DNA of 64,000 nucleotides from an uncultured Nitrospirales bacterium (GTDB lineage: Bacteria > Hydrogenedentota > Hydrogenedentia > Hydrogenedentales > GCA-2746185), in contig CAZUJL010000011.1 of the NCBI GenBank assembly GCA_964620045.1, forward strand, positions 31,477-95,476, read 5' to 3'. Below are positions 1,647 through 51,725 of this stretch, piece by piece. The position numbers were made by a program, and so were the translations under genes. The notes beneath the pieces are model-generated. The model did not search any database. It was not told where the DNA came from and worked only from the letters and a program-made list of their open reading frames with translations. Numbering within the stretch: position 1 is the first letter of the stretch; each line of letters starts with the position of its first letter.

Positions 1647-2099
1647 TTAACGCCGCTTCGCTAGAAACTTCTCCAGCTTGTCGAAACCGCTCTCGGATCC
1701 GGTTTTGTGCGCGTCGCGTGTCGCTGCGTCTGGATAGCCGCGCTGCGTAAGCGTCGCGAAGGTGCCGTCTGGAGTTTCGCGTAGTTCGAGCAGTCCGTGC
1801 ATTACACCAGTATCGCCGAATCCGTCCACCGGCGTGGAGGTCCATTTCAGGATCGTCGGCGCGTTCACCTGTTGATAGTCCATGTCCCAGGTGTAGGTGT
1901 CGCCGGCGCCGCCTGTCATCGAGAACCGCGTCCCGCGGCCCGTCTTCGGGTCGACCTGTATGTTCGTGAACCGGAAGCCCTCGGGACACCACCACTGGCG
2001 GAGGTCCGCGGGATCGATATAGGCCTTGAATACGCGCGCGATCGGTGCCTGAAACCGGCGTGTGATTTGAAATGATGTGTCTGCAGCATGGTCGGCCAT
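1647..2099 (-). CDS. SRPBCC / AHSA1-like (polyketide-cyclase fold) protein
   Basis: ORF 1647..2168; the internal Met (MADHAADTSFQITRRF...) gives about 150 aa with AHSA1/SRPBCC-like composition. Confidence 0.5.
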   Translation of the reverse strand: MADHAADTSFQITRRFQAPIARVFKAYIDPADLRQWWCPEGFRFTNIQVDPKTGRGTRFSMTGGAGDTYTWDMDYQQVNAPTILKWTSTPVDGFGDTGVMHGLLELRETPDGTFATLTQRGYPDAATRDAHKTGSESGFDKLEKFLAKRR

Positions 2100-2217
2100 C
2101 GCGTTTGCCTCCCGCACTACCGTTCTCGACCTTTTGATTCGGTTTGTCAAGGCCCGCGTGGAGCACATTGATCCAGCCCGATATCAACGTTACGGTAAAG
2201 GGCTTCGGAGGAACCTT

Positions 2218-3657
2218 ATGCGCCGGTTTGTTCGCATTGTCGTCGCCATCGCGGTCGTATCCCTGTCATTCGCGGCATCCGCCGCGCCGCGCAACATTGT
2301 CCTGATCCTGACCGACGACCAGCGTTTCGATGCGCTTGGTGTGCTGAATCCGTACTTCGAGACGCCGAACCTCGACGCGCTCGCGAAGAACGGCATCCTG
2401 TTCGAAAACGCCTTTGTGACCACGGCGCTGTGCTCGCCGAGCCGGGGCTCGATCCTGACGGGACAATGGGCACACAAGCACGGCGTGCTCGACAACGTGA
2501 CCGCGCTGCCCGAGGACACGCCGACGTTTCCGCGCATGCTGCAGCAGGCGGGCTATGAGACGGCATTCATCGGCAAGTGGCACATGGGCGGCGAGAGCGA
2601 TGCGCCGCGGCCGGGGTTCGACCACTGGATCTCTTTTCGCGGCCAGGGGATTTATTTGAACCAGGTCTTCAACATCAACGGCAAGTCCGTGCCGACACAG
2701 GGTCACAATGTCGATCGCGTGACGGATTTCGCGCTGGAATACCTGCGCCAGAAACACGACAAGCCCTTCATGCTGTATGTCTCGCACAAGGCGGTGCATG
2801 CGGACTTTGTGCCGGCAGAGCGCCACGCGGGCAGCTATGCCGGCCGTGACTATCCGCACCCCGCCACGATGGCGGACACCGAGGAAAACTACGCCGGCAA
2901 ACCGAACTGGGTGCGCGCGCAGCGGAACTCGTGGCACGGTGTCGACGGGATGTACAACAAGACCGTGGACTTCGACGACTTCGCGCGACGCTACGCGGAA
3001 ACGCTGCGCAGCGTGGACGACAGCGTGGGCCAGATCGTCGCGGAGTTAAAGGCCCAAGGCCTGCTCGAGTCCACGCTGCTGATCTTCAGCTCGGACAACG
3101 GCTTTCTGTTCGGCGAGCACGGTCTCATCGACAAACGCACGATGTACGAGCCGTCCATCCGCGTGCCGTTTATCGCGCACTGCCCGGAACTCTTCGCCGG
3201 CGGGCAACGCCGCGCGCAGATGGTGCTAAACGTCGACCTCTGCCCCACCTTTCTCGAGGCCGCGGGCGTGGCGATTCCGGATACCGTGCAGGGCAAATCG
3301 TTTTACCCCATTCTGACCGATGCGCAGGCGCCGGGCCGCGATGCGTTTGTGTACACCTACTTCTGGGAGCGCGATTTCCCACAGACGCCAACGGTGCTCG
3401 GCGTGCGCACGGACCGTTACAAGCTGATGCGTTTTCAGGGCGTGTTCGACCGCTACGAACTGTATGACCTGCAGGCCGATCCGGACGAACGCCATAACCT
3501 CGTGGGCGACTACTACGTGACCACCGAAGCCGGCCGCGTCGAATATCGCATCCGCTCGGAAGCCGACGCCGACACGAAGGCCATCTTCAATCAGCTCGAT
3601 ACGCGCCTGAACCAACTGCTCGACGAAATTGGTTGTGCCCGCGAACCGCATTGGTGA
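2218..3657 (+). CDS. Formylglycine-dependent sulfatase (arylsulfatase family), secreted
   Basis: Signal peptide (MRRFVRIVVAIAVVSLSFAASA). Sulfatase signature C-S-P-S-R (LCSPSRGSILTG), and LILTDDQR at the N-terminus. Confidence 0.85.
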   Translation: MRRFVRIVVAIAVVSLSFAASAAPRNIVLILTDDQRFDALGVLNPYFETPNLDALAKNGILFENAFVTTALCSPSRGSILTGQWAHKHGVLDNVTALPEDTPTFPRMLQQAGYETAFIGKWHMGGESDAPRPGFDHWISFRGQGIYLNQVFNINGKSVPTQGHNVDRVTDFALEYLRQKHDKPFMLYVSHKAVHADFVPAERHAGSYAGRDYPHPATMADTEENYAGKPNWVRAQRNSWHGVDGMYNKTVDFDDFARRYAETLRSVDDSVGQIVAELKAQGLLESTLLIFSSDNGFLFGEHGLIDKRTMYEPSIRVPFIAHCPELFAGGQRRAQMVLNVDLCPTFLEAAGVAIPDTVQGKSFYPILTDAQAPGRDAFVYTYFWERDFPQTPTVLGVRTDRYKLMRFQGVFDRYELYDLQADPDERHNLVGDYYVTTEAGRVEYRIRSEADADTKAIFNQLDTRLNQLLDEIGCAREPHW

Positions 3658-3678: not shown

Positions 3679-4479
3679 ATGAGCATGAAGAACAAGGTGG
3701 TCGTGGTCACGGGTGCCGGCGGCGACGCCTCGGGCCGCGCCATTGCGCGGCGATTCGCGCGGGCCGGTGCGCAGGTCGTCGTGTCGGACATCAACGAGCG
3801 CGGCATGCGCGACACCGAGCGCTTGATCGAGGGCGACGGCGGGCGCGTGGCCGCCTGTCGCGCTGACGTGCGCGATCCGAAGGCCGTGCGACGACTTGTG
3901 GCCTATGCCGAAAAAACCTTCGGCGGGCTTGACGTGATGGTCAACAACGCGAGCGGGAAAATCGTCCCGGAAGTCACGATGGACGACTGGTTCGGCAATC
4001 TCGAGGTCGATCTGCTCGGCGCGATGTACGGCGTGCGCTATGCCATCGAAGCGATGCGCCGTGCCAAGGGCAAACGGGGAGGCGCGATCGTCAACATCGG
4101 ATCGACCTCGTCTCTCGGCTATGGTCCGCCCCACTCCTCCCTGCCCGGCTATGATGCGGCGAAAGCCGCCATCATGCACCTCAGCGCGTCGCTCGCCGGC
4201 CTGAAGGAGGAAGGCATCCGCGTGAATTGTCTTGTGCCGGACTGGATCGCGTCGGGCGACGTGCTCGCCGGAATCGCGGGCCTGTCGGCGAAGGAACGCA
4301 CGGCGTGGCGTGTTCCGAAAACACTGACGACGCCGGGGGAAATCGCCGATGCGGTCTTCGAACTCGCCCGGAACCCGCGGCTCGCGGGCCGCGTGATGGT
4401 GTGGTGGAGCGGTCGCAAGCCGGGCTTCCTGCCGCAAGCCGAGCGCGGTTACACGCGGCTCGAACGAAAGCCGCGGTAG
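3679..4479 (+). CDS. Short-chain dehydrogenase/reductase (SDR)
   Basis: The Rossmann motif VVVVTGAGGDASGRAIA is at the N-terminus. SDR catalytic region is present (...SSLGYG...YDAAKAA, i.e. the YxxxK motif). Confidence 0.8.
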   Translation: MSMKNKVVVVTGAGGDASGRAIARRFARAGAQVVVSDINERGMRDTERLIEGDGGRVAACRADVRDPKAVRRLVAYAEKTFGGLDVMVNNASGKIVPEVTMDDWFGNLEVDLLGAMYGVRYAIEAMRRAKGKRGGAIVNIGSTSSLGYGPPHSSLPGYDAAKAAIMHLSASLAGLKEEGIRVNCLVPDWIASGDVLAGIAGLSAKERTAWRVPKTLTTPGEIADAVFELARNPRLAGRVMVWWSGRKPGFLPQAERGYTRLERKPR

Positions 4480-4483
4480 CCTT

Positions 4484-5935
4484 ATGCGCATCACGCGTTT
4501 CATCTGGATCACGATCGCCGTTATGTGTGCCGCAGGCGCAGGGGCACAGCCCACGCCCGCGCGGCCGAATGTGCTGATCATTCTGAGTGACGATCAACGA
4601 GCCGACACCATCTCGGCCTACGGCAATCCACGCATCAACACGCCCAACCTCGATCGCCTCGTCGCGCGTGGATATAACTTTCGCCGCACCTACTGCATGG
4701 GTTCGCCCCACGGCGCTGTGTGCATCCCCAGCCGCGCCATGCTGCTGACGGGCCGGTCGTATCTCCGCATCCCGCTCGACCTCGGCAATGTCGATACGCT
4801 GCCGCAGCGCCTCCGCGCGGCCGGTTATACGACGTTCATCACCGGCAAGTGGCACAACGAAGCACCGAGTCTGCTCAAGAGTTTCGAGCAAGGCCGCGCG
4901 ATCATGCTGGGTGGCATGTCCAACCACGAAGCCGTGCCACTGGCGGATATTGGCGACGGCACACTGGTGAATCAACGTACAGACACGCGGTTTTCGTCGG
5001 AAATTTTCGCGGACACGGCCATCGATTTTCTGAAAAATGCGCCCGCGGACAAGCCGTTTCTGTGCTACGTGCCTTTCACCGCGCCGCACGACCCGCGCAT
5101 GCCGCCGCCGGCCTACCGCGAGAAGTACTATGCGAAGCGTCCGCCGCTGCCACCCAATTTCATGTCGCAGCACCCGTTCGACAACGGCGGTCTGCTCACG
5201 CGCGACGAAAATCTCGCGCCGTGGCCGCGTACGCAGGATGTGATCAGCGATCAGCTCGCGGAGTACTACGGGCTTATCGAGCATCTCGATGTGCAAATCG
5301 GCCGCGTCCTCGATGCGCTGGCGGCTTCGCCTTTCGCGGAGAACACCTACATCGTGTTCGCCGCCGACCACGGCATCGCGCTCGGCAGCCATGGCCTGCT
5401 CGGCAAGCAGAGCGTCTACGAGCACAGCATGCGCGCGCCGCTGATCATCGCCGGGCCCGGCATTCCACACGGCGAGACGCGCGCGCTCACCTATCTGCTG
5501 GACGTGGCGCCCACGCTGTATACCCTGCTCGGCATCGACGCGCCGGGCCCGCTCGACGGCGTTTCGCTCGCGCCGGTGTGGCGTGGTGAAAAATCATCTG
5601 TGCGCGACGCCATCTTTCTGGCATACGAAAACAGCCAGCGCGCGATTGTGGAATCGCAGTGGAAACTGATCCGGTATCCGCTGATCAACTACACACAACT
5701 GTTCGACCTCGCAAACGATCCCTACGAGATGCAGAACCTGGCCGAGATTCCCGAATACGCCGACCGCGTGGACGCCCTGATGGATCGCCTGCGCGCGGAG
5801 CAGGCCCACTACGGAGACGGGGCGCCGCTTACCGTCGAGCGCCCCGCCCGGCGCCAGGTCGACCTCACCGGTATGCGCGGCGAACCCGATCCCTGGCAGC
5901 CCGAGTGGATCATCGAAAAGTATTTCCACCGCTAA
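4484..5935 (+). CDS. Sulfatase (second paralog), secreted
   Basis: Signal peptide. LIILSDDQRAD; C-I-P-S-R signature (AVCIPSRAMLLTG). Confidence 0.85.
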   Translation: MRITRFIWITIAVMCAAGAGAQPTPARPNVLIILSDDQRADTISAYGNPRINTPNLDRLVARGYNFRRTYCMGSPHGAVCIPSRAMLLTGRSYLRIPLDLGNVDTLPQRLRAAGYTTFITGKWHNEAPSLLKSFEQGRAIMLGGMSNHEAVPLADIGDGTLVNQRTDTRFSSEIFADTAIDFLKNAPADKPFLCYVPFTAPHDPRMPPPAYREKYYAKRPPLPPNFMSQHPFDNGGLLTRDENLAPWPRTQDVISDQLAEYYGLIEHLDVQIGRVLDALAASPFAENTYIVFAADHGIALGSHGLLGKQSVYEHSMRAPLIIAGPGIPHGETRALTYLLDVAPTLYTLLGIDAPGPLDGVSLAPVWRGEKSSVRDAIFLAYENSQRAIVESQWKLIRYPLINYTQLFDLANDPYEMQNLAEIPEYADRVDALMDRLRAEQAHYGDGAPLTVERPARRQVDLTGMRGEPDPWQPEWIIEKYFHR

Positions 5936-6066
5936 CAAAGGCACGAATCGGCGCGAGCATCTGCTCGTATAATTGCAAGCGAACATAGTTATCTAGTTCT
6001 AATTATTAGTCTTTCTAAACACTCGGAAATTTCGACGGTTTCGTCGGTCTTTTTGGTGTTCGGGCA

Positions 6067-6095
6067 TTGACAGATCGTCACAGATGTCCTACTAT
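6067..6095 (+). promoter_or_regulatory. Near-consensus sigma70-type promoter (TTGACA, 17 nt spacer, TACTAT) upstream of the cytochrome c monooxygenase-like gene
   Basis: TTGACA at 6067-6072 and TACTAT at 6090-6095, inside a roughly 200 bp AT-rich intergenic stretch. GGGAG lies 8 nt before the ATG at 6144. Confidence 0.4.
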
Positions 6096-6143
6096 GCAAC
6101 GTGGAAAAAGAGGGGACGTTTCGTCCTAATCGGGAGCTCGACG

Positions 6144-7412
6144 ATGATTCGGTTGTCGTATGCAGTCCGCTTTGGCGGCACGCTGCTCGCCTGCGCCTTT
6201 GTTGCGCCGGGCGTGTTCGCTGCGTCGCAAGAAGGCGGCACGGTTACCTACACGAAAGACGTGTTGCCCATCCTGCAGAAAAACTGTGAGATCTGCCACC
6301 GCGCCGGCGGGCAGAACCTCGGCGGCATGGTCGCGCCGATGGCCTTCACGAACTACGAAGAGACGCGCCCGTGGGCAAAGGCGATCGGCAAGGCGGTCGC
6401 CAACAAATACATGCCGCCCTGGCACGCCGCGCCGCAGCACCACGGCCAGTTCGAAGGCGAACGTGGCCTGACCGACGACGAGATTGCCACGATCGTCCGC
6501 TGGGTGGAAACCGGCGCGACGCGCGGTAACCCGACCGATGCGCCCGCTCCGCTGGAATGGCCGCAGATCGATGGCTGGACGATCGGCGAACCCGATCTCG
6601 TGATCTCGATGCCCGAGCCCTATTTCGTGCCGGATGACGTGCTCGACGAAACGAAGTACTTCCCGATGAAGCTCACGGAAGAGATGCTTCCAGAGGATCG
6701 CTGGGTCAAGGCTGTCGAGTTCCGGCCGGACAGCGAAGTGGTGCACCACATGATCGCGTCGCCGTTTGGCGGACTCGCCCCCGGCAACATGCCGATCGTG
6801 TACCAGGAGGGCTACAGCGCGAAAGTAACCAAGGGCGAACAAGTCACTTGGAATATGCACTACCACAAGGAGCCGGGCCCCGGCACAGGCCGCTGGGACC
6901 AGTCTTCGCTCGCGGTGAAGTTCTATCCGAAGGATTACCAGCCCAAGCACGTGCTTTCGCTGATCCCGCTGGGCCCGATGGTGTTTAAAATCCCGGCGGG
7001 CGACCCAAACTATCCGGGGACGGCCGAGTATGTGTTTGCGAAGGACACGCTCATCAATTCGATGATGCCGCACATGCACTACCGCGGCAAATCAGTGCAC
7101 TATGAACTCCTTTATCCGGATGGTCGGAAGGAAACGCTGCTGGACGTCCCGCACTTCGACTTCAACTGGCAGACAACCTACCGCTTTAAAGAGCCCAAGG
7201 CCGTGCCGGCCGGCACGAAGGTGATGATCACCGGTTGGTGGGACAATTCCGCCGACAATATCTGGAATCCGGATCCGACGGCCGATGTGACGTGGGGTGA
7301 AGCCACCCACGAGGAAATGCTCTTCGGCTGGCTCTCCTTCACGAACGCGGATGAGGACGCCACGGCGCACCAGGGCATCCAGAGCTTCAGCGAACTGAAC
7401 GGCGACGACTAA
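6144..7412 (+). CDS. Secreted cytochrome c (CxxCH, planctomycete PSCyt1-like) fused to a copper type II monooxygenase-like (DBH/PHM-like) domain
   Basis: Signal peptide. DVLPILQKNCEICHR heme-binding motif. Histidine clusters are present (VHHM, MHYH, HMH) followed by conserved Met. Confidence 0.6.
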   Translation: MIRLSYAVRFGGTLLACAFVAPGVFAASQEGGTVTYTKDVLPILQKNCEICHRAGGQNLGGMVAPMAFTNYEETRPWAKAIGKAVANKYMPPWHAAPQHHGQFEGERGLTDDEIATIVRWVETGATRGNPTDAPAPLEWPQIDGWTIGEPDLVISMPEPYFVPDDVLDETKYFPMKLTEEMLPEDRWVKAVEFRPDSEVVHHMIASPFGGLAPGNMPIVYQEGYSAKVTKGEQVTWNMHYHKEPGPGTGRWDQSSLAVKFYPKDYQPKHVLSLIPLGPMVFKIPAGDPNYPGTAEYVFAKDTLINSMMPHMHYRGKSVHYELLYPDGRKETLLDVPHFDFNWQTTYRFKEPKAVPAGTKVMITGWWDNSADNIWNPDPTADVTWGEATHEEMLFGWLSFTNADEDATAHQGIQSFSELNGDD

Positions 7413-7433
7413 GACATCGCTACAAATGACAAT

Positions 7434-7476
7434 CGGCCCGCGGAGACGATCTCCGCGGGCCGATTTGTGTTTTTCG
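7434..7476 (+). terminator. Rho-independent terminator-like hairpin (13-bp stem CGGCCCGCGGAGA/TCTCCGCGGGCCG) followed by a T-rich tract
   Basis: Read directly from the sequence, immediately 3' of CDS 6144..7412. Confidence 0.6.
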
Positions 7477-7544
7477 TCCGTTAAACAAAAGTCGACTCAC
7501 GGATGCTTTCATGGTGCTCTGTGGTGAGCTGACGGAGTAGAGCG

Positions 7545-8063
7545 CTAGTCGCCGATGGGAATGGGACCGAGACAATCCAGCAGATCGAGGAGCTCGGATT
7601 CGGCACCGAGTGCGACATAAAACTCTCGGCAGCCAGGGCACACCGTGCGGGACTCAAAACTAAACGCGGATTCGTGAAGTTCGCGGTGCCAATGGAACAG
7701 GCAGTGTCGGCGCGGACACTGGAGATCCTCGGGCTCCAGCAGGGCGTTCTCGTTCAGCGCGCCAAGTTGGGTCCGCGCGACGAGGTAGCACGTCCGCATG
7801 TACTCGATGCTGGAGATGCCCGAGTATTTGGCGAGCTCGCGACTTTCCCGGGTCGTGATGCGCGCGAGATTGCGGTTCACGAGATAGACCGGCCGGGGTT
7901 GGGCTTCGTTTGTGAAGCAGAAGTGCACGTGCTTCACAACGAGGTCCTCTGCATGCCTGGGCGAACCGTGTTCGCCCACGAAAAATTGCGCGAGTTCCTT
8001 CAAATCAATAGCGGACTCATAGGTCGAGTACACCGCAATCGGTTTTGCAGCAGGCATAGACAT
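7545..8063 (-). CDS. Hypothetical protein with a C-terminal Cys/His zinc-ribbon-like motif (CPRRHC...H..H...CPGC)
   Basis: ORF 7545..8273. Sequence upstream of 8063 drops to about 35-40% GC, so the start was set at an internal Met (MSMPAAK). The true N-terminus is uncertain. Confidence 0.4.
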   Translation of the reverse strand: MSMPAAKPIAVYSTYESAIDLKELAQFFVGEHGSPRHAEDLVVKHVHFCFTNEAQPRPVYLVNRNLARITTRESRELAKYSGISSIEYMRTCYLVARTQLGALNENALLEPEDLQCPRRHCLFHWHRELHESAFSFESRTVCPGCREFYVALGAESELLDLLDCLGPIPIGD

Positions 8064-8834
8064 CCACGCATGTGTGAGGTTTACGTTGTAATTACCGATT
8101 TGGTCTAGAACATTACAGATTGCCCACGCAAAATTAGTAAATAGCGACTCAACCGGCGATGTTTTTTCATAATTATTGTATTTATTAGCAGGGCCGAACC
8201 TGTTTGCAGAAACCCGCTGAGGCATGGTTCTAAAGGCCGGGCCCGACACAGCAAGGGGACGAAACGCCCTCAATTTGTTTTGCCGGGACTACGTCGAAAT
8301 GCGGATGCGGTTTCTGGTGCACCGCTCCGGCTGCGACATTGCCGAGGAACTGCTCCACGTTCTCAACCAGGTGACACTACAGTCATTCATGGAGCAACAA
8401 AGGGGCTGTCCAATGGGACCGGAAACCACCGCAGCGATCATGTTCTCTCCAGATCCACTTCCAAATAGTTCCCGACAGTGGCAACGTCACCGTCACGAAT
8501 TTTTTGCCCACGAGAGAAGATTTCTTGAACGCCCTTGGTGGACTTGCGTTCAAGGATTATTTTGGCCGCGCGCGAAGCACGTATTCCGCCGCGGAACTGG
8601 GGCTGTTCGCACGCAGACGGCGATTGGGCGTACTACCACGAAGCTGAAGCGGGTGTTGATGGAAACCGAAGCCCCGGATGTGCCGGACGGCGCGGCCTGT
8701 ATATCGACGGAGACCTCCAAGCAGTGCAACGGCGATTCCGGGGCCAGCGATGGTTGCTGATCCAAACCGGAAAATCTGCTCGGCGAATAACGGAGGGTAT
8801 GCGCGAACGCGCGCATTCAGTCAGACTTAAAAGC

Positions 8835-12570: not shown

Positions 12571-14340
12571 TTGGTGGAAAACCCGATCGGTAAAGGACTT
12601 GCAGACTTCGCGGCCGCCCTCAATCGGCTGGACGAAGCCCTCGTCCTTGCGCCCGGCCTACACGATCGTGTGTTCGGTGGCACCCAGCCTTGGCGCGACC
12701 TGCTGACCTACAAACTCGTGCCGCATATGGCGGGCGCGGGCTGCCTGGTCGCGGCGGTGACCGGGGGGACGAACACCGGCAAGTCCACGGTTTTTAACCT
12801 GATCATCGGCCGGGCCGCCAGCCCCATCGTGAACACGGCGGCCGCCACCTGCCACCCCGTGCTCGCGGCAAATGCGCAGCGCCGGGCCGAGTGCCTAGAA
12901 GCCAAGCTGGTGCCCGAGTTCCAGCCGCGTCCACTGGAAAACCCCGGTCAGGCGACCGATGGCAGCTTGCCGGCCGAGGCGTTGTTCGTGGTGCTGGAAC
13001 CGTCCCTGCCGGATCACCTCGTCGTCATGGACACGCCCGATATCGACTCGATCGAAAAGCGCAACTGGGATGTCGCCGCGCATTTGCGCGCCGCGGGCGA
13101 CGTGATGGTGGCGGTGCTCACGGGCGATAAATACAAAGACGAGCGCGTGGTGGACTTTTTCCGGCATGCGGTCGCCGCCGACCGTGTTGTGATCCCGGTG
13201 ATGAACAAGGCCAACCCGGAAAACAGTTTCGATGTCGCGCGGCGGCAGCTCGCCGAGTTCCGCAAGGACACCGGCACAAGCGCTCCGGGATTCACGATTG
13301 CCCACGACTTCCACATCGGCAACAACCTGAAGCGGCCGATCGCGGCGATCGACGGCGCGGGCGATCTGCGCGCACACCTCGAATCGCTGGATGTGCCCGC
13401 GATCAAAGCGCGTGTGTACGAAGGAACAGTCCGCCGTTTCGCCAGTGAAGCGGAGGGGTTTCTTGCCAATCTTGAGATGAATGCCGGCGGCCTGCAACAG
13501 GTCACTTCGGCCTTTCACACGATTGCCGAGACCGCTTCGCACCAGTACGATCCGGCCCCCGGCAAGGAAGTCGGCGGACTCTTCCACGCCTTTGTGCAGT
13601 CCAAGCGCGGGCCGGTCCGCCGCACGATCGGGGCCACCAGCGCCACGTTTGCGCGGGGCGTCGGCGCGGCGGGGCGGTTCGTGCGTTCGGCGTTCGTCAA
13701 GCGCGCCACGATGGACTCGCCCGAAGACGAACAGGCCACGGATGCGCTGCACGCGGTGCACCGTGAAACCATCACGCGGATCGCGCGCGAAACCGCCGCC
13801 GCCTGCGCCGAGCGCGCGCGCACGATCGCCTCGCCGGCGCGCGAGATGATCGGGAATCGTTTCGAGCAGCTCGATGCCGAAGCCGCGGCCGAGGCCGTTG
13901 CCGCGGAGGTATTGAAAGCCGTCCCGGTTTCGGAAGCCTTTGCACAACACGCGCAGCAGATGCTCGAAACCTGGTGGACCGATCACAAAGGCCGCCGCCG
14001 CGCCCTCGAAGCGCTTGACGCGGTGCTCGCCGTGATGCCGGCCGCGATCGCCGCGCCTTTTGCCTTGCACACCGGCGGCCTCGGCGCCGCCGAGGCCGTG
14101 TTGCTGGCGGGACCCGTCGCCGCGCAGTTCGCCACGCGCGTGATGGAATTCCAGTTCGGCGACGCGCTCTTCGATTTCCTTTCGCCGTGGAAAGCCGAGC
14201 AGCAGACACGCCTGCGCGACGCGCTGCTGCGCCATATCGTCCATGCCGGCACGCAGCCGGTGGACGCCGCGGTCGACGCCATGTCTGGCGACAATGCCGC
14301 CCAGCTTAGGAGCGCCCTCGACGCATGCCATACTCGCTAA
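12571..14340 (+). CDS. Bacterial dynamin-like GTPase (first of a pair)
   Basis: P-loop GGTNTGKST, DTPDIDS (G3), NKAN (G4-like), and a long helical C-terminal region. Confidence 0.75.
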   Translation: MVENPIGKGLADFAAALNRLDEALVLAPGLHDRVFGGTQPWRDLLTYKLVPHMAGAGCLVAAVTGGTNTGKSTVFNLIIGRAASPIVNTAAATCHPVLAANAQRRAECLEAKLVPEFQPRPLENPGQATDGSLPAEALFVVLEPSLPDHLVVMDTPDIDSIEKRNWDVAAHLRAAGDVMVAVLTGDKYKDERVVDFFRHAVAADRVVIPVMNKANPENSFDVARRQLAEFRKDTGTSAPGFTIAHDFHIGNNLKRPIAAIDGAGDLRAHLESLDVPAIKARVYEGTVRRFASEAEGFLANLEMNAGGLQQVTSAFHTIAETASHQYDPAPGKEVGGLFHAFVQSKRGPVRRTIGATSATFARGVGAAGRFVRSAFVKRATMDSPEDEQATDALHAVHRETITRIARETAAACAERARTIASPAREMIGNRFEQLDAEAAAEAVAAEVLKAVPVSEAFAQHAQQMLETWWTDHKGRRRALEALDAVLAVMPAAIAAPFALHTGGLGAAEAVLLAGPVAAQFATRVMEFQFGDALFDFLSPWKAEQQTRLRDALLRHIVHAGTQPVDAAVDAMSGDNAAQLRSALDACHTR

Positions 14341-15980
14341 CCGATCTCTTCCGCCAGCTCGAGGGTCTCGCCGCGTACCAAGGACCCTGGGCGCCGCTGC
14401 GGCAGGAAGCCCCGCTGTTGCAGACGCGGCTGGCGGAACTCCGCGAGCGCGAGGTGCGGTTGGACGACCTGCTTGTGGTCGCGCTGGTGGGCGGTTCGGG
14501 TGTGGGCAAATCGACGCTGCTGAACGCGCTCGCCGGCGATGAACTCGCCAAAACGTCCGAGTTCCGCCCCTGCACTTCGGTGCCGACCGTCTACCATCCG
14601 CCGGGCGCGCGTCTGCCGTTTGGCGAAGGCTGGGTGGCGAAATCCGGCTCGGCGCTGGAACATCTCGTGATTGTCGACACGCCCGACTCCGACACGATCG
14701 CGCGCGAGCATCGCGTACTGGTGCAGGCGGCGTTGCGCGAATGCGACTTGATCCTCGTCTGCGCGGATTCGGAGAAATATCTCGACGAGGCCACGTGGTC
14801 GCTGCTGCGTCCGCTGAAGGACGAGCGCGCGCTTGTGTGCGTGGAAACCAAAGGCTCACCGGCGGCCAGCATCCGCGAGGATTGGCTGCGCCGGCTCAAA
14901 GCCGAAGGCTTCCGTGTCTCTGGGTATTTCCGCGTGAACAGCACGCGCACCTTTGACCGCAAGATTTCCGGGCGCGCGCCGGCGGCTGACGAATACGAGT
15001 TCCAGGGTCTTGAGACCTTTCTCGCGAACGAACTGACCGCCGACCGCATCCGCCGAATCAAGCGCTCGAACACGGCCGGGTTGCTGACGAAAACCGTGCG
15101 CACGCTCGACGAGCGCGTGGCCGCGCGTACGCCCGATCTCGCCCGCGCCGATCAGGTATTGCGCGAAGCGGAGACGGCCCTCGCCAAGGACGGTTTCGAC
15201 GTCGTCCGGCGGCGGCTGTTCAGCGAGCCGCATCTGTGGAACTACGCGCTGGGCCGTGAAATCAGCGTGCGCTCCAAGGGCGTTGTCGGCCTGTTGTACC
15301 GCGTGGTGGAGGCTGCGCGCTCATTGCCGGCGCGCTTGGCGGGTTGGTCGCCGTGGTCGCTGCGCTCCACAACCGGCCATCGCGCGGCGACGCTGCTTGG
15401 CGAAGGCGGCCTGCTCGACGCGCCGCTCGATCTCGGCTCTACCGAATTGCGGCGGCGCTTCGACGATCACGCGAGCACCGTGCGTGTGGCGCTGGCCCAG
15501 GCCGGTTTCGATGGCGGCGCGGATACGCAAAATTTTGATCGGTACGCGGCGGTGCTCGCGCGCGGCGTGGAGGAGGTCCTGCGCGGGCCGGCGCGCGAAC
15601 GCGTGGTGGCGCGCGCCCGAATCCTGAGCAGTTGGCCGATCGCGCTGGTGCTGGATGCCGCGCCGATCGCGTTTTTCGGCTACTCGGCGTATGCGCTGGT
15701 GCGCGATTACTTCTCGCAGGTGTATTGGAGCGCGGGCGAACTGGTGCATGCCGCGACGGTGCTGGGCATCATCCTCGCCGCGGAGCTGCTGTTGTTTTCG
15801 ATCGCGACTCGCATGCTTGCGTGGGGCGCACGCACGGGCGCGTCACGCGATTTACGCCTCGCCTTGGCGCCGGGCATCGCGGCGTTTACCGATGAACACG
15901 GGGCCATCGCACACGCGCAGGCCCTCGCCGCGGAGATTCAGGCTATCCAGCACAGCCTCGATCACGAAGCTGCGCGGTAG
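14325..15980 (+). CDS. Bacterial dynamin-like GTPase (second of a pair) with C-terminal hydrophobic segments
   Basis: P-loop GGSGVGKSTLLNAL and DTPDSD. Its start overlaps the upstream stop by 16 nt. Two predicted transmembrane/paddle segments near the C-terminus. Confidence 0.75.
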   Translation: MPYSLTDLFRQLEGLAAYQGPWAPLRQEAPLLQTRLAELREREVRLDDLLVVALVGGSGVGKSTLLNALAGDELAKTSEFRPCTSVPTVYHPPGARLPFGEGWVAKSGSALEHLVIVDTPDSDTIAREHRVLVQAALRECDLILVCADSEKYLDEATWSLLRPLKDERALVCVETKGSPAASIREDWLRRLKAEGFRVSGYFRVNSTRTFDRKISGRAPAADEYEFQGLETFLANELTADRIRRIKRSNTAGLLTKTVRTLDERVAARTPDLARADQVLREAETALAKDGFDVVRRRLFSEPHLWNYALGREISVRSKGVVGLLYRVVEAARSLPARLAGWSPWSLRSTTGHRAATLLGEGGLLDAPLDLGSTELRRRFDDHASTVRVALAQAGFDGGADTQNFDRYAAVLARGVEEVLRGPARERVVARARILSSWPIALVLDAAPIAFFGYSAYALVRDYFSQVYWSAGELVHAATVLGIILAAELLLFSIATRMLAWGARTGASRDLRLALAPGIAAFTDEHGAIAHAQALAAEIQAIQHSLDHEAAR

Positions 15981-21517: not shown

Positions 21518-21556
21518 GAGGCGCCCGCGCGATGCGGGCGCCTCGTGCTTTTTCTG
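21518..21556. terminator. Bidirectional rho-independent terminator (11-bp stem GAGGCGCCCGC/GCGGGCGCCTC; T-tracts on both strands)
   Basis: Between the convergent CoA-transferase gene (+) and cytochrome c gene (-). T5 follows on the + strand; on the - strand the stem is followed by TTCGTTTTTTA (T-rich). Confidence 0.65.
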
Positions 21557-21565
21557 TAGTCGCGA

Positions 21566-23104
21566 TTACTTCGCGAGTTCGCCAGGGATCGTGATTGTCT
21601 GGCCGTTGCCGATGGGCAGCGTCAGTTTCAGCGCGTCGCCCTCGACGGTGCCGGCGATGGACATCGGATCCTGACCGGGAACCATCGCGGTGCCGGTGAA
21701 GCTGGTGCCGGTCCACACGATGTCCTTCACGGCGGCGCGGCCGACGATCTGGCCGAACTTCACGTACCAGCCGCCTTCGCCCGATTTCGGGATGTGCAGC
21801 GCGCTCGGCTCAAGCTGCGGGCCGTTCGCCTGGATCATTACTTTGAAGACATCGCCCGGGTGCGCCGCGGCGAGTTCCGCGAGCTTCGCGATCACGGGGC
21901 TGTCGGCGGTCGCGTCTTTCGGACTCACGCCTTCGGCCACGACATAGTCCACGAAGCCGATCATCATTTCGTCGTACGACTCGGGACCGAAGCTGATGTC
22001 TTTGGTCGGGTCCGGGTTGTGCGGGTTGTTCGACGAGTTGTCCCAGTGCGCGACGCAATCGATGCGCGAACCCTTCGGCACGGACACCGGCTCGTCGAAT
22101 TCATACACCGTCTGCCAGTTGAAGTCGTACTTGCTCACCTTGAGCAGGTCGCGCGTCTGGCCGTCGGGCGTCGTCAGCGTGTAGCTGAAATCCTTGCCAC
22201 GGTAGTGCATGTGCGGTGTCAGCGTGTGAATGATGCTGTCCTGCGCGAAGGTGAAGGTCGAAGTCGCTTCGTAGTTCGAATCGCCGGCCGGGATGCGGAA
22301 ATCGGCGTTCATCACCCACAGGTTGACGAGCTCCTTCTGCACGTCCTTCGCCTCGGCGAAGTGCAGGCCCACGCGCGTCTTGTCTTTCGTCGCTTCGCCG
22401 GTCAGGTGGTAGTGCATGTCGCCCACGATCGGCTGGCCCTTCTTCAGCAGGCGCGCCGTGCCATCGGGGAAGGAATCCGGGCCCGCGCCCGCGGCCCACG
22501 CGCTGATCCAGCCGTTCGGGTTGCCCTGGCTGCCCTGCCACAGGATCACGTGGTGCACGACCTTCGAGTTGCCCGGGAGAATTTCCACGCCCGTGATCCA
22601 CTTGTCTTCGGCGAAGTCTGTCTTGCCGACGAGGTTGTAGAACTCATCCGAACCGGTCGCCGGGAGATCGATTTCATCGAAGGTCACGACGTAGTCCGGT
22701 TCGCCCAACTGCCATTCGCCCGTCGGGAATTTCGGGGCCACGGGGAGGTCAGACTTGTTGCCTTCCGGCGCGCCGGCCTTCGCCCATTCGAGGATCAGAT
22801 CTTTTTCATCCTGCGTGAGCGAGCGATCGTTCGAGAAAGGGCCAAAGCCTTTGTCGGCATGCCACGGGGGCATCACATTGTCGCCGACATTTTTCTGAAT
22901 CGCCTTCACCCACGGCCGGACTTCGTCGTAGCTCAGGAGCGACATCGGACCAATCTGGCCCGGGCGGTGGCACTCGACGCACTTGGCGTTCATAATCGGC
23001 GCGACGTCTTTGCTGTAGGTCGGCTTCGCGGCGTCAGCGGTCCCGCCGATCAAACCAGCCGCGCCCACCGTGCACGCCGCCACTATTCCCTGAATCGCTT
23101 TCAT
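21566..23104 (-). CDS. Secreted cytochrome c (CxxCH) / copper-monooxygenase-like fusion; paralog of 6144..7412 with an extra roughly 110 aa C-terminal domain
   Basis: Signal peptide, KDVAPIMNAKCVECHRP, the VVHHV / MHYH / PHMHYRGK clusters, and YDFNWQT...WDNSSNNPHNPDP. It is collinear with the protein from 6144..7412. Confidence 0.6.
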   Translation of the reverse strand: MKAIQGIVAACTVGAAGLIGGTADAAKPTYSKDVAPIMNAKCVECHRPGQIGPMSLLSYDEVRPWVKAIQKNVGDNVMPPWHADKGFGPFSNDRSLTQDEKDLILEWAKAGAPEGNKSDLPVAPKFPTGEWQLGEPDYVVTFDEIDLPATGSDEFYNLVGKTDFAEDKWITGVEILPGNSKVVHHVILWQGSQGNPNGWISAWAAGAGPDSFPDGTARLLKKGQPIVGDMHYHLTGEATKDKTRVGLHFAEAKDVQKELVNLWVMNADFRIPAGDSNYEATSTFTFAQDSIIHTLTPHMHYRGKDFSYTLTTPDGQTRDLLKVSKYDFNWQTVYEFDEPVSVPKGSRIDCVAHWDNSSNNPHNPDPTKDISFGPESYDEMMIGFVDYVVAEGVSPKDATADSPVIAKLAELAAAHPGDVFKVMIQANGPQLEPSALHIPKSGEGGWYVKFGQIVGRAAVKDIVWTGTSFTGTAMVPGQDPMSIAGTVEGDALKLTLPIGNGQTITIPGELAK

Positions 23105-23267
23105 CCAATCTTTCCTCCAAAAGTCCCACGCGGGAACGCTGGCCAGTGTAACACCCTTGGCCCGCTAAAGTTTCGTATTCACGGGCCTTTTCGTTAGACG
23201 CGCGACCGTAAACAAGGGTTTCACGCAGAGGGATGACATTTCGTCACACTGGCGAATGGCGCGGAAA

Positions 23268-24971
23268 TTAGCGGTGTCGAATCCGCGCCAGCATCAACGG
23301 ATGCAGCAGGAACGGCAGCAGCGGCACTACCGAAATGCCCACCCACAGGGGCCAATTCATCGGGTGCGGAAATCGCTGCGCCCAATCTTTCGTGCCGGGC
23401 GGCACTTCCCACTGCACCATGGAATGCGCGAAGGCCCAGCTATATGCGAGCCACAGCGCGGCGCACACCCACGGCACGGCAGGGTGCAGCAGTCCGCGCC
23501 GGTTCGCCTGCCACGCGAGCACGAACAGGCCCAGCACCGCCAAACCTGCCCCCGCCCAATACGCGACGGGCGACCCCGTCGCTGCGTATTCCGTGGCCTT
23601 GGCAGGATCCAGCAGACCCACCAACGCACCGCCGAGCAACGCGCCGCGGAGCGGCACAAGCAGAATCAAAAAAGCGCCCGCGGCGAAGAGGTAGCTCGCC
23701 GGCCATGCGCACGCCCACATGAGCACGTACAAGAACCCGAAGTGCATCGCCACCACAAGCGCCTGCGGCAGGTGCGTGTAACCCTGGTGCAGGAACGCGC
23801 CGAAGCCGGTGGACTCACCCTGCGACCGCACGAATGCCTCGATCGCGAGCACGATGCCGGCGAGTTCCATCAGCGCGAGCAGCCCGCCGACGCCAATCAC
23901 GATCAGGCGCGCGTTCGAGATGCGGGTGAGCGTGAGTGGACGCGTGAGCAGATAACTCGAGTTCGAGTTCCAGTGGCCGCCGCGCATGAACAGCACGCCG
24001 CCGACCATCAATCCGCCCAGAAACGCGGCGAGGAACAGCCCCATCCACACGTACTGCGCGCTGGAGAACCAGTCGATGCGGAACAACGGCTCGCCGGAGG
24101 ACTTGCCGGTCACGTTCGTTGCGCGGAACAGCCCCACGACCAGCGGCATGCCGATGAAGTAGGCGGCCGCGGATCCGCCGACATAAATCGGCAGGAGCAG
24201 TCCGTATTGCCGCCATTCGAACCAAAACTGCGCCGCACGCGCGGAGCCGAAGGCGCGTCGTACACGAGTCTTCGCCACGGTCACGCTACGCCGCGGCAGA
24301 CTCGCCGCCCAGCCGCCGCGCCGCTGCACGACCAGTACGGCACACGTAAGTAGCGTCACAATGACCAGGGTCACACCGAACACGATCGCGCCCCGTGCGG
24401 GTGCGCTGCCGTCGAACAAGGTCCGCACCCAGGGCCGTTGCACGAGCGCGGCCAAGCTGCCGAAATACAGCACGAAGGAGACCAGCGCCACGCGCGGAGA
24501 GGCCTTGCCCATCGTGTAGGCCCAGAGCTGCGCGATCGGCATGAAGGCCATCGCGCCGAGCACGGGCTTCCACCACGTCATCTCTACCTTTAGCACGAAC
24601 GGCAACGGCACCGCCGCCGCGAGCGACACCACCGCGCCGACGGATGCGCCAAACGCGAGGTGGATAAGGGCCAATTTCCATGTGCGCAACGGCATGCGCA
24701 GCACACGATCCGGCAAGCCGATTATCAGGCGCTCCGCGTCGCTGTTGCTCAGGATCACGGCGGCCGCGCCGACGAGATTTGCGACGCCAATCAGCATCAG
24801 CGCGATCATGAAATCTTCGGAGGCGTCGCGGTTTTGCGCGCGCAACCCCTGCGCCTCGGCCAACCACAAGCCCACAAACGCCAGCGCAAGCCCCGCGAAC
24901 ACGATCAGGAGAATCTTGCGCACGCGCCGCCAGAGGCCGGCGTACAGCGTCCATACCGCGCGGTTCGCCAT
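23268..24971 (-). CDS. Polytopic membrane protein; probable ABC-2-type transporter permease
   Basis: At least 12 predicted TM helices. Its start overlaps the stop of the ABC ATPase gene immediately upstream. Confidence 0.55.
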   Translation of the reverse strand: MANRAVWTLYAGLWRRVRKILLIVFAGLALAFVGLWLAEAQGLRAQNRDASEDFMIALMLIGVANLVGAAAVILSNSDAERLIIGLPDRVLRMPLRTWKLALIHLAFGASVGAVVSLAAAVPLPFVLKVEMTWWKPVLGAMAFMPIAQLWAYTMGKASPRVALVSFVLYFGSLAALVQRPWVRTLFDGSAPARGAIVFGVTLVIVTLLTCAVLVVQRRGGWAASLPRRSVTVAKTRVRRAFGSARAAQFWFEWRQYGLLLPIYVGGSAAAYFIGMPLVVGLFRATNVTGKSSGEPLFRIDWFSSAQYVWMGLFLAAFLGGLMVGGVLFMRGGHWNSNSSYLLTRPLTLTRISNARLIVIGVGGLLALMELAGIVLAIEAFVRSQGESTGFGAFLHQGYTHLPQALVVAMHFGFLYVLMWACAWPASYLFAAGAFLILLVPLRGALLGGALVGLLDPAKATEYAATGSPVAYWAGAGLAVLGLFVLAWQANRRGLLHPAVPWVCAALWLAYSWAFAHSMVQWEVPPGTKDWAQRFPHPMNWPLWVGISVVPLLPFLLHPLMLARIRHR

Positions 24972-24974
24972 TGC

Positions 24975-25861
24975 TCAGAATCCCACGCGCGCCACGAAAA
25001 TGTCTTCGAGCGTCGGCCGTGATTCCTGCACGATTTTCGCACCCATTCGCGCGGCCTGCGCCTTCACGCCCTCCGCCGCGCCGTCGCACAGCACGCGCCA
25101 GGCCGTGCCCGCGCCGTCGCAGTGCAGCGCGCCGTCCAGCTTTGGCGCTTGTGTTTGCGCTTGCGGAAATTCGAGATGCAGGTGGCGGTGCGCGCTCAGA
25201 ATATTTTCGAGCCGATCGCACAGGAGCACCTTGCCGCGGTGGATGATCGCGACGTAGTCCGCGACGCGCTCCACTTCGTCGAGCAGATGCGACGAAAACA
25301 GAATCGTGCGGCCTTCGGCGGCCACGCTGCGCATCACGGCGCTTAGGATGTGCCGCCGCACGACGGGATCGAGGCCCGAAGACGGCTCGTCCAGGATCAG
25401 CAGTTCCGGCCGGTGCGCCAGCGCGCAGATGAGGCCGACCTTGGCCTTTTGCCCCTTCGACAGCGTGCCGATTTTCTGCGCCGGGTTCAGATCGAACCGC
25501 TCGCGCAATTCCTGCGCGAAGGTGTCGTCCCACTTCGGATATAGCCCGCGCGTGTAGCGCATTAACTCATCGACGCGCATCCAGCCCGGCAGATCGCGAT
25601 CTTCGGACAAATACCCTATGCGCCCGAGCGCGCCCTCCGGATCCGCGATCGGATCGCGGCCGAGCACGCGCACGGTGCCCTGCTGCGGTTTCAGCAGGCC
25701 GATCAAATGCCGGATCAGCGTCGTCTTGCCCGCGCCGCTCTCGCCCAGCAACCCGAATACGCACCCCGCCGGCACCTGCAGCGACACGTCGTCCGCCGCC
25801 ACCTTGCCCTTGTACACACGGCGCAGGTTCTGCACATCGATTACGGGTTGTTTATCTGGCA
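24975..25861 (-). CDS. ABC transporter ATP-binding protein
   Basis: Walker A GESGAGKTT, signature LSKGQKAKV, Walker B LLILDEPSSGLD. A GTG start with GGAG 7 nt upstream is proposed; the ORF tool extends it to 25916. Confidence 0.8.
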
Positions 25862-25954
25862 CAAAAGCTCCTCGAAAGCTGGCGCGACCGCCCAAAAGCG
25901 GCTTACTATTGCGCACGAACGGCCGGTGAATCCAGCCGCCGAAAGGAATGGGTG

Positions 25955-48349: not shown

Positions 48350-49516
48350 CTATTGGATGATTTCGGTTGTCAGCGTGCCCAGGCGGTCGATGTGAATCGA
48401 CACGGTGTCGCCGGGCTTCAGGTAGCGGTCGTTCTTCTTTTCCGTGGCGATATACGATTCGATGACGTGGTCGGTAACGGGTTTTCCCCAGCCTCCGGCG
48501 ACCCAATGTAAAAGGCCGGATGCCATGGCGGATTTTGGGATTCCGTCGAACACGGTGCCCGCCGGGGTGCCGGCCAGGATCAGCGTGCGTGCGGGGATCG
48601 CGCCATTTACCACCGGCAGTTGTGCAGTCTCGCCGTTGTAGTCCCACCGTGCGTCCTTGCGCGCGTCCGTCTGGCGCAGCAGCTCGGCGATGTCCCAAAT
48701 TGCCAGTGTCATATTGGCCTGCTGGCGCAATTCCTCATTTACGGCCAGCCTCAGATTCAGTGCGCTCGCGAAGGCCTCGAGATCGCGCGGAATTACAAAC
48801 AAGTTGCCGACCGGCAGATACCCCGGCGCGCTTTTGCCGGTGGTGAATCCGTCGCCCGAGGTCACGTCGTCGGGATTCACGTGACGCAACAATGCCGCGC
48901 GGTTCGTGAAGTCGTTCACGGCGATCAGACCCATGTGCTTGGGCGTCCCGGGCAGCGGTGTGTCGTTCAGCGTTACAAACGCCACTTCGACTTCGTAGTC
49001 GAGCAGCGCGTCGCCCGCCGATACCGGTGCGCGGAAGGGGGTCGGCTCGACGAGTTTCGCGAACAGGAAAGGGCCGTCTTCGACTTCGGATTCTTCCGCG
49101 TGCTCGGCGAAGTTTGTTCCCGCGGCCACGTGTGCGCTGGTCAAATCGACCGGCAGGATTAGCGATTCCAGTGGCACTGTTGCGGACGCGTGTGCGAACG
49201 CCGCCGCGATCCGGGCCTGCAGTGCGTCGTACCCGAATCCGTTGAAGGCCGCGATCGGATCGGTGTACTCCGGCCCCAGCTCTTTCGTCAGATTGACCGC
49301 TGTTACCTCGTTGTTCTCGGCCTTGCTGACCGCGAGCAACTGAATGCCGCCATCGGCCTGTATGCGCGCAAAGGTGAGCGCCTCTTCGAGCGGCGCAATC
49401 GCGATGGAGTGTGGAAAGTTCGCGGCCGTGTGTGTTTCCGGCTCACCAGAACACCGCGCGAGCAGCGCAATCAGGCTCATCGTTGCAACGATATTTCTCA
49501 TGGACTGGCCTTTCAT
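48350..49516 (-). CDS. Fumarylacetoacetate hydrolase (FAH)-family protein with a lipoprotein-type signal (LLARCSG)
   Basis: C-terminal FAH-fold pattern (…ILAGTPAGT…PGDTVSIHIDRLGTL…). Confidence 0.55.
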   Translation of the reverse strand: MKGQSMRNIVATMSLIALLARCSGEPETHTAANFPHSIAIAPLEEALTFARIQADGGIQLLAVSKAENNEVTAVNLTKELGPEYTDPIAAFNGFGYDALQARIAAAFAHASATVPLESLILPVDLTSAHVAAGTNFAEHAEESEVEDGPFLFAKLVEPTPFRAPVSAGDALLDYEVEVAFVTLNDTPLPGTPKHMGLIAVNDFTNRAALLRHVNPDDVTSGDGFTTGKSAPGYLPVGNLFVIPRDLEAFASALNLRLAVNEELRQQANMTLAIWDIAELLRQTDARKDARWDYNGETAQLPVVNGAIPARTLILAGTPAGTVFDGIPKSAMASGLLHWVAGGWGKPVTDHVIESYIATEKKNDRYLKPGDTVSIHIDRLGTLTTEIIQ

Positions 49517-51261: not shown

Positions 51262-51725
51262 TGCGCGGCAGCCCGAATGCGGGGCTCAACGCGGAAAAAC
51301 AGCAGGCCCAGCGCCACTATATAAAACGTGCTCAGCACGCCGAACACGAAGACGTTTTCGTCGATGCCGAGAATGGGGATGTGCTCGTGCGGCACTGTGA
51401 CCATGCCGTCGTATTGCGGCGCCCACACCACGGCGAGCCAGAAGCCCAAAAAGTTCGTCGCCAGCCACGCGAACGAGGTGTACAGATGGATCAATCGCAG
51501 CGGTCGCACGAACCAGATCAGATAGACGTTCGCGATTCCAGAGAACAGGAAGAACCCGAGCAGCCACATCATGTGCACGCGCGCGTGCCCGACCCAGTCT
51601 GGATTAAACAAGTGCGACTGCGAGTAATCGCGGCCCCACGGCCCGAAGAACTCGAACGCGCAGACCGTCATTAAAATGCGAACCAGCAACAGCCCTTTTA
51701 CCGGCCCTTTAATCGCCTCATACAT
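51258..51725 (-). CDS. Small membrane protein (4 TM), unknown function
   Basis: Overlaps both the tetR stop and the monooxygenase start; hydrophobic profile. Confidence 0.5.
   Translation of the reverse strand: MYEAIKGPVKGLLLVRILMTVCAFEFFGPWGRDYSQSHLFNPDWVGHARVHMMWLLGFFLFSGIANVYLIWFVRPLRLIHLYTSFAWLATNFLGFWLAVVWAPQYDGMVTVPHEHIPILGIDENVFVFGVLSTFYIVALGLLFFRVEPRIRAAAQ

Follow-up and report, generated by a model that had tools for sequence, protein, structure and literature searches.

PHM, DBH and TBM are the textbook two-copper monooxygenases and, to our knowledge, have been studied almost only in animals, as ascorbate-dependent enzymes. In PHM the CuH domain is the electron-entry domain, and in the animal enzymes it is ascorbate that supplies electrons to CuH. 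PHM, the core of PAM (Protein Data Bank (PDB) entries 1PHM, 1OPM and 1SDW), is built from two beta-sandwiches that carry a CuH site (His-His...His) and a CuM site (His-x-His...Met), whereas DBH, tyramine beta-monooxygenase and MOXD (PDB 4ZEL) have an extra N-terminal domain before this core and extra C-terminal sequence after it. Here we describe a gene at positions 21566..23104 (minus strand) of a 64-kb stretch of DNA from an uncultured Nitrospirales bacterium, the whole of which is referred to below as the window. Its 512-amino-acid (aa) product, which is also present as an identical protein in public data (P0001), shares the two beta-sandwiches with PHM, with both sets of copper ligands in the same order and position, and likewise has added sequence on either side. 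The protein is classed here as a divergent bacterial branch of the PHM/DBH superfamily, and as neither a PHM nor a DBH orthologue.

A full-length AlphaFold2 (AF2) model computed from 46 family sequences (predicted local distance difference test (pLDDT) 86; predicted template-modelling score (pTM) 0.79) begins with a disordered N-terminus, followed by three helices (~28-115), two beta-sandwiches (~125-392), a helix (403-414) and eight strands (419-510). We regard this domain order and fold as established, together with the near-invariance of every metal-ligand residue described below. The gene is divided as follows:

21566..23104, minus strand: complete coding sequence, 512 aa plus stop, for a protein with signal peptide, cytochrome c domain, PHM-like two-copper core and C-terminal beta-barrel (open reading frame (ORF) list, AF2 model).
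23030..23104, minus strand: residues 1-25, probable Sec signal peptide (MKAIQGIVAACTVGAAGLIGGTADA, with cleavage before AKP; sequence reading).
22760..23023, minus strand: residues 28-115, monohaem c-type cytochrome domain of three helices (sub-threshold Pfam matches, model, conservation).
22967..22981, minus strand: haem-attachment motif CVECH, residues 42-46 (sequence, conservation).
22331..22732, minus strand: residues ~125-258, first beta-sandwich, equivalent to the PHM N-domain, with the predicted CuH ligands H184/H185/H231 (Foldseek, hhalign, conservation).
21929..22330, minus strand: residues ~259-392, second beta-sandwich, equivalent to the PHM C-domain, with the predicted CuM ligands H298/H300/M380 (Pfam, hhalign, conservation).
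21569..21907, minus strand: residues 400-512, subfamily-specific C-terminal module, helix 403-414 and then an eight-stranded up-and-down beta-barrel.

Direct sequence searches of the PDB, using either the single protein or a family profile, did not find PHM or DBH and returned weak haem-motif matches to hydrazine synthase alpha and CcoP, so that the link to PHM needed a fold search and hhalign; NCBIfam likewise holds no model that matches the 512-aa protein. When the full-length model was compared with the PDB using Foldseek, the top match was human DBH (4ZEL, E 1.1e-12), and ~30 rat PHM structures were recovered at E ~1e-11, with TM-scores of up to 0.65 normalised on PHM. The DBH and PHM matches span E 1e-12 to 1e-10 at a probability of 1.00 and cover the two-beta-sandwich core, while the next, unrelated folds appeared at 1e-5 or worse.

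For comparison at the level of residues, the rat PHM catalytic core, which was checked to be identical to PDB 1SDW_A (index + 42 gives standard PAM numbering), was aligned as a single sequence with the 46-sequence family profile using hhalign (E 2.7e-4). This alignment pairs both the His-His and third His of CuH and the His-x-His and downstream Met of CuM:

CuH: H184/H185 (VVHH) with rat PHM H107/H108 (TVHH).
CuH: H231 (MHYH) with rat PHM H172 (VHYG).
CuM: H298/H300 (PHMHYRGK) with rat PHM H242/H244 (VHTHHLGK).
CuM: M380 (DEMM) with rat PHM M314 (DEMC).

The motifs H-x-H-x-x-G-K and D-E-M are thus common to both proteins. All six copper ligands, as well as C42, C45, H46 and M78 of the haem domain, are invariant in the 46-sequence alignment. 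In a larger set of 339 family cores, which includes 107 diverse representatives of 50%-identity clusters, H184, H231, H298 and H300 were present without exception, H185 showed one substitution, and M380 was gapped in three sequences. H233 was considered as a universal fourth CuH ligand and rejected, being Thr in most diverse relatives and kept only in the two subfamilies found in the window. The family has further invariant motifs of its own, R302, W330-Q331, D355-N356-S357-x-x-N360-x-x-N363-P-D365 and E379, of which those in the stretches DFNWQ and WDNSxxNxxNPD lie in the second beta-sandwich. These stand in place of the PHM residues that anchor the glycine carboxylate of the substrate (R240/N316/Y318), which align with T296/I382/F384 and are not conserved, T296 being variable among family cores (T/A/L/M/F). 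Unlike PHM, the 512-aa protein also lacks conserved disulfide cysteines.

The N-terminal domain matches several Pfam models below threshold within residues 28-115 (Cytochrome_CBB3, PccH and Haem_bd), with Cytochrome_CBB3 scoring 19.6 bits against a cut-off of 27. It has the marks of a class I c-type cytochrome, namely CxxCH (C42-V-E-C45-H46) and M78 in a helical domain. M78, which lies in an MPPW motif, was found without exception across the 339 cores, and C42, C45 and H46 were gapped in only two sequences. Since M54 is clade-specific, being conserved only in the two subfamilies of the window, we assign M78 as the probable distal haem ligand on the basis of its conservation. The domain does not resemble DOMON: it is helical, carries CxxCH, and is matched, weakly, by cytochrome c models only. 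DBH differs from the 512-aa protein at both ends, having DOMON and a C-terminal dimerisation domain where the latter has a class-I-like cytochrome c and a calycin-like barrel. The protein is placed as a divergent branch because the fold and the copper ligands agree with PHM and DBH, but the scores fall short of the Pfam thresholds, the PHM substrate anchor is missing and there is no DOMON.

How such a protein might work can be read from its layout. We put the chance at a little better than even that the 512-aa protein is a periplasmic or secreted O2-dependent copper monooxygenase fed electrons by its own haem c and not by ascorbate. Transfer from haem to CuH is proposed because, in both the model and the hhalign alignment, the haem domain is fused directly N-terminal to the CuH domain, the electron-entry site in PHM; in DBH, the same position is occupied by DOMON. 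In the proposed sequence of events, the protein would be exported and loaded with its metals, and haem c would accept electrons one at a time from donors of the periplasmic pool, e.g. cytochrome-reducing dehydrogenases or soluble c-type cytochromes, and hand them to the adjacent CuH site. CuM would bind and activate O2 and hydroxylate, at a C-H bond, a substrate lodged in the interdomain cleft, with the C-terminal barrel as a putative accessory module that may bind or present a ligand, or dock a partner. Export is suggested by the N-terminus, which looks like a Sec-type signal with an A-x-A site; the same region is disordered in the AF2 model (pLDDT <50 at residues 1-3 and 9-23), and a signal of this kind fits the periplasmic maturation of haem c. 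Compared with PHM, the bacterial protein would thus be an exported enzyme in which an N-terminal haem c stands in place of the dependence on free ascorbate and to which a C-terminal barrel has been added.

Several observations weigh against an O2-dependent monooxygenase wired in this way. The hhalign probability to the single PHM sequence is only 42%, and the two Pfam models of the copper type II ascorbate-dependent monooxygenases score below their cut-offs (Cu2_monoox_C, PF03712, 22.1 bits versus 23; Cu2_monooxygen, PF01082, 12.2 bits versus 30), so the case for a copper monooxygenase is carried largely by the ligand pattern and the fold of the model; some relatives exceed the PF03712 cut-off. 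The gene context examined gives no clue to the substrate, and the adjacency to pyrroloquinoline quinone (PQQ) dehydrogenase genes seen in some relatives (see below), which has no counterpart in the window, may reflect nothing more than lineage synteny. Periplasmic dehydrogenases with outward electron flow, moreover, typically have a fused cytochrome c as well. An enzyme of that kind, in which the copper core would oxidise a substrate and haem c feed the electrons into the respiratory chain, in the manner of quinohaemoprotein dehydrogenases and SoxAX-type proteins, would have the usual layout of a cytochrome c joined to a periplasmic catalytic domain; it would also agree with a weak SoxX-like NCBIfam match of the haem domain of the second family member in the window, and with the presence of the family in lineages that include low-oxygen habitats, e.g. 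Thermoanaerobaculia and Hydrogenedentota. We nonetheless consider an outward-directed dehydrogenase or oxidase unlikely, because the near-invariant His2Met CuM and His3 CuH are the signature of O2-activating PHM/DBH enzymes, and we know of no dehydrogenase with the PHM/DBH fold.

The remaining alternatives keep the copper core and differ in what it would do. That this is a true bacterial PHM, amidating secreted peptides, appears highly improbable even though PHM ranks in the top two of the structural matches and every copper ligand has its PHM counterpart: the glycine-carboxylate anchor is replaced as described above, by residues of which T296 varies, identity to PHM in the Foldseek alignment is only ~16-17%, and no PAL-like lyase or precursor-peptide gene is found among conserved neighbours. 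The sequence comparison suggests that the substrate is probably not a glycine-extended peptide. Many relatives carry AhpC/TSA domains fused to the same cytochrome c and copper core, and since lytic polysaccharide monooxygenases, which are also mononuclear-copper oxygenases, can use H2O2, the protein could be peroxide-handling, as a peroxygenase or peroxidase or in periplasmic detoxification of reactive oxygen species. This reading is given a low probability, as Pfam detects no peroxiredoxin domain in the 512-aa protein and as the AhpC/TSA fold also serves thiol-disulfide and copper-chaperone functions, which makes the fusion ambiguous; on the favoured monooxygenase reading, such domains would fit an O2-activating enzyme that can leak peroxide. 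A similarly low probability is assigned to a non-catalytic redox or copper protein (an electron carrier, copper store or chaperone reusing the PHM fold). It would accord with a database name of 'cytochrome c' only and with the lack of an operon link to a pathway, but both copper sites and the family motifs have remained near-invariant across thousands of diverged sequences, which points to a constrained active site more than to mere binding of metal.

The C-terminal module separates the gene at 21566..23104 from much of its family. Modelled in isolation, it comprises one helix and eight consecutive strands (pLDDT 86), and it is predicted to be a small eight-stranded up-and-down barrel of the avidin/lipocalin (calycin) type. 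It falls within the calycin definition of an eight- to ten-stranded up-and-down antiparallel barrel, whereas Pfam gives no membership of the lipocalin, avidin or DUF3471 families at the level of sequence. None of 28 C-terminal segments had a Pfam match at E<=10, and Foldseek returned no significant match, with none below E 0.04; the top rows were CRBP, FABP and lipocalin proteins. Other calycin-type barrels (avidins, bacterial lipocalin-like lipoproteins, Cap15 and the C-termini of PBP-like beta-lactamases) show no sequence similarity to it, at 6-13% identity. A carbohydrate-binding or Ig-like beta-sandwich, raised in the preliminary description of this DNA as a check on the C-terminus, is contradicted by the barrel fold in the Foldseek comparisons. 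A relationship to DUF3471 was not detectable either (hhalign against a DUF3471-bearing relative, probability 0.2%).

When the 120 relatives closest to the 512-aa protein were searched with a hidden Markov model (HMM) of the barrel, 114 matched, and we therefore take the barrel to be a real domain and not a read-through artefact. The same model was found in 17 of 149 diverse representatives and in none of the 120 closest relatives of the second family member in the window:

6144..7412, plus strand: other paralog, with signal, cytochrome c domain and two-copper core, without the C-terminal barrel (mechanical ORF 6084..7412, 442 aa).

Members of this paralog's clade either lack the C-terminal extension or have EF-hand repeats or DUF3471 in its place. 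The barrel thus marks one subfamily, setting the type of the 512-aa protein apart from the type encoded at 6144..7412. The start at 6144 corresponds to Met21 of ORF 6084..7412 and agrees with the length of orthologues (417-420 aa).

The two genes had been described as collinear paralogs, a view that is borne out over the whole cytochrome c domain and copper core. BLASTP aligned residues 6-400 of the 512-aa protein with residues 32-428 of the 442-aa protein (37% identity and 56% positives over 411 columns, E 1e-89), a span that includes CxxCH, VVHH, MHYH, PHMHYRGK, DFNWQT, WDNSxxNxxNPDP and (D/E)EM, and the 442-aa protein retains all metal-ligand residues. The condition named beforehand as refuting the description, a resemblance limited to the cytochrome c domain, thus does not hold. 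As had also been stated, about 110 C-terminal residues are extra: residues ~400-512 of the 512-aa protein, which form the eight-stranded barrel of the model, have no counterpart in the 442-aa protein. tblastn with both proteins against the window revealed no third copy.

In a neighbour-joining tree of 168 family cores, barrel-bearing sequences were nearly monophyletic: their common ancestor has 50 descendant leaves, of which 43 carry the barrel. The 442-aa protein fell in a separate 31-leaf clade without the barrel and ranked 85th of the 168 by distance from the 512-aa protein. Each paralog has orthologues of its own, with identities of up to 82% (512-aa) and 87% (442-aa), and the two types also occur together in other genomes, on one 1.97-Mb contig (P0067 and P0179) and within one metagenome-assembled genome (L021 and L050). 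Because of these separate clades, own orthologues and co-occurrence elsewhere, the two genes of the window are old paralogs from different subfamilies and not the products of a local duplication. The family expansion proposed earlier consequently holds insofar as several copies per genome are common, but not as a recent or local event. Substrate specialisation of the two paralogs, also suggested earlier, is a plausible hypothesis. Their gene neighbourhoods differ, and are not conserved within either subfamily.

To establish the extent of the family, 1.84 billion cluster representatives (50% identity clusters) were searched exhaustively. At E<=1e-3 the search recovered 17,161 family clusters, and tightening the cut-off to E<=1e-10 and E<=1e-30 left 10,543 and 2,960, respectively. 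Relatives carry a range of added modules: AhpC/TSA peroxiredoxin-like domains at the N-terminus, EF-hands at the C-terminus, and CBM48, DUF1080/3-keto-disaccharide-hydrolase or M56 peptidase domains; tandem double cores of 860-1250 aa also occur (P0241, P0259, P0283, P0296, P0303, P0346 and P0034 are examples of relatives with varied architectures). The database fusions of AhpC/TSA, cytochrome c and Cu2_monoox-like domains are 37-47% identical to the 512-aa protein in the cytochrome c and copper core. They differ from it in that ~200 aa of peroxiredoxin-like domain stand at the N-terminus and that EF-hand, CBM48, DUF1080 or M56 modules are often attached; the 512-aa protein has the barrel and none of these modules. 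Named genomes with family members belong to Hydrogenedentota, Acidobacteriota (Thermoanaerobaculia, Holophagales, Blastocatellia and Bryobacterales), Nitrospirales, Planctomycetota and Sumerlaeota, and several carry two to four copies. One locus (L084) has two 420-aa genes in tandem (5455-6717 and 7001-8263), one a short-type paralog and the other without a recorded Pfam match, set among planctomycete-type PSCyt1/PSCyt2/PSD1 and DUF1501 genes. In public databases, members are named 'cytochrome c', 'mono/diheme cytochrome c family protein' or 'hypothetical protein'. No description of bacterial cytochrome c-PHM-like proteins was found in the full-text literature searched, although much subscription literature lies outside this coverage and the absence is not proof.

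Turning to the gene's surroundings, two local signals flank the coding sequence:

23113..23118, minus strand: Shine-Dalgarno sequence GGAGGA, 9 nt 5' of the ATG at 23104 (read from the sequence).
21518..21544, no strand assigned: 12-bp GC-rich hairpin with T-runs on both strands, terminator-like (consensus match only).

The hairpin sits between the 512-aa gene and a convergent CoA-transferase gene, as a shared site, and looks like a bidirectional intrinsic terminator. Directly upstream on the same strand are genes for a 567-aa multi-pass membrane protein without a Pfam match (23268-24971, minus) and an ATP-binding cassette (ABC) transporter ATPase (24975-25916, minus). This arrangement is common only to a near-identical contig and a 75%-identical locus, and the genes around loci with 61% and 53% identity bear no relation to it. 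When neighbours were clustered across 82 loci, the only synteny to emerge was lineage-restricted, so that a conserved operon was rejected, and one large neighbour 'cluster' proved to be an antisense ORF of the 512-aa-type gene itself and was discarded as an artefact. That no partner gene is conserved beyond close relatives suits a self-contained enzyme.

In the Thermoanaerobaculia/Holophagales group, the lineage-restricted neighbours are a PD40 propeller and a PQQ dehydrogenase, with the latter lying divergently upstream in about a dozen Thermoanaerobaculia/Holophagales/Multivorans loci:

L012 3279-5699, and also L013, L015, L018-L020, L023, L025, L026 and L040: PQQ glucose/alcohol-dehydrogenase beta-propeller beside the barrel-type gene.
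L027 4852-6999 (Hydrogenedentota locus): PQQ dehydrogenase with its own cytochrome c domain, within 2 kb of the barrel-type gene.

Enzymes of the PQQ-dehydrogenase type commonly reduce c-type cytochromes. These neighbours could be electron donors or could reflect lineage synteny only, and are treated as a lead and not as evidence.

Elsewhere, the window is ordinary chromosome, with genes for SMC, RNase Y, dnaN, a type II secretion system ATPase and a SurA-like chaperone. A tight run of sulfatase (2077-3657, plus), short-chain dehydrogenase (3679-4479, plus) and sulfatase (4484-5935, plus) genes lies directly upstream of the 6144-7412 paralog. A link between this paralog and sulfatases was considered and set aside, since it is found only in the window and beside the 87% orthologue (L082) and is not consistent in more distant orthologues. 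At 7545-8400, GC content falls to 0.49-0.50 against a window mean of 0.62, over a Pfam-less 242-aa ORF (7545-8273, minus); in the syntenic locus L082, a sulfatase gene occupies the position of this ORF, between the paralog and a DUF2400 gene, and the segment may be a small replacement or insertion. Adjacent, slightly overlapping genes for dynamin-like GTPases of 589 and 551 aa lie at 12571-15980 (plus), a pair also present in the syntenic locus L002. What looks like a small aromatic-catabolism cluster is found at 48350-52395 (minus), with genes for a fumarylacetoacetate-hydrolase-family protein (48350-49516), an FAD aromatic-ring hydroxylase (49513-51261) and a TetR regulator (51718-52395). 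Finally, a 763-aa protein with a GH67 N-terminal-like region, DUF4838 and PA14 (54218-56509, plus) is followed by a GFO/IDH/MocA oxidoreductase gene, and the two probably form a glycan-degrading unit.

By itself, gene 21566..23104 adds modestly to what is known: a barrel-marked subfamily, and two window copies that are old paralogs. The main interest lies in the whole family, an unrecognised bacterial group that spans no fewer than 17,000 clusters (50% identity), in which both copper sites are kept and a covalently fused c-type haem would replace the external reductant. There is also a gap in annotation, since database names are uninformative and no solved structure matches by sequence. Tentatively, and with somewhat less than even confidence, we suggest that these proteins form a large bacterial class of 'haem-wired' PHM/DBH-type monooxygenases, in which the periplasmic cytochrome c pool, possibly fed by PQQ dehydrogenases, would drive O2 activation at CuM, and in which interchangeable end modules (the calycin barrel here; EF-hand, CBM48, DUF1080 and peroxiredoxin domains elsewhere) would direct the chemistry to different non-peptide substrates. 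If so, PHM/DBH chemistry would not be essentially a eukaryotic invention, and the family would provide a natural system in which to watch electron delivery to CuH within one polypeptide; in a tractable member, the passage of electrons into CuH from a donor in fixed position could be measured. Such a member could also bring to light new C-H hydroxylation chemistry, in the periplasm or outside the cell, in Hydrogenedentota, Acidobacteriota, Planctomycetota and Nitrospirales.

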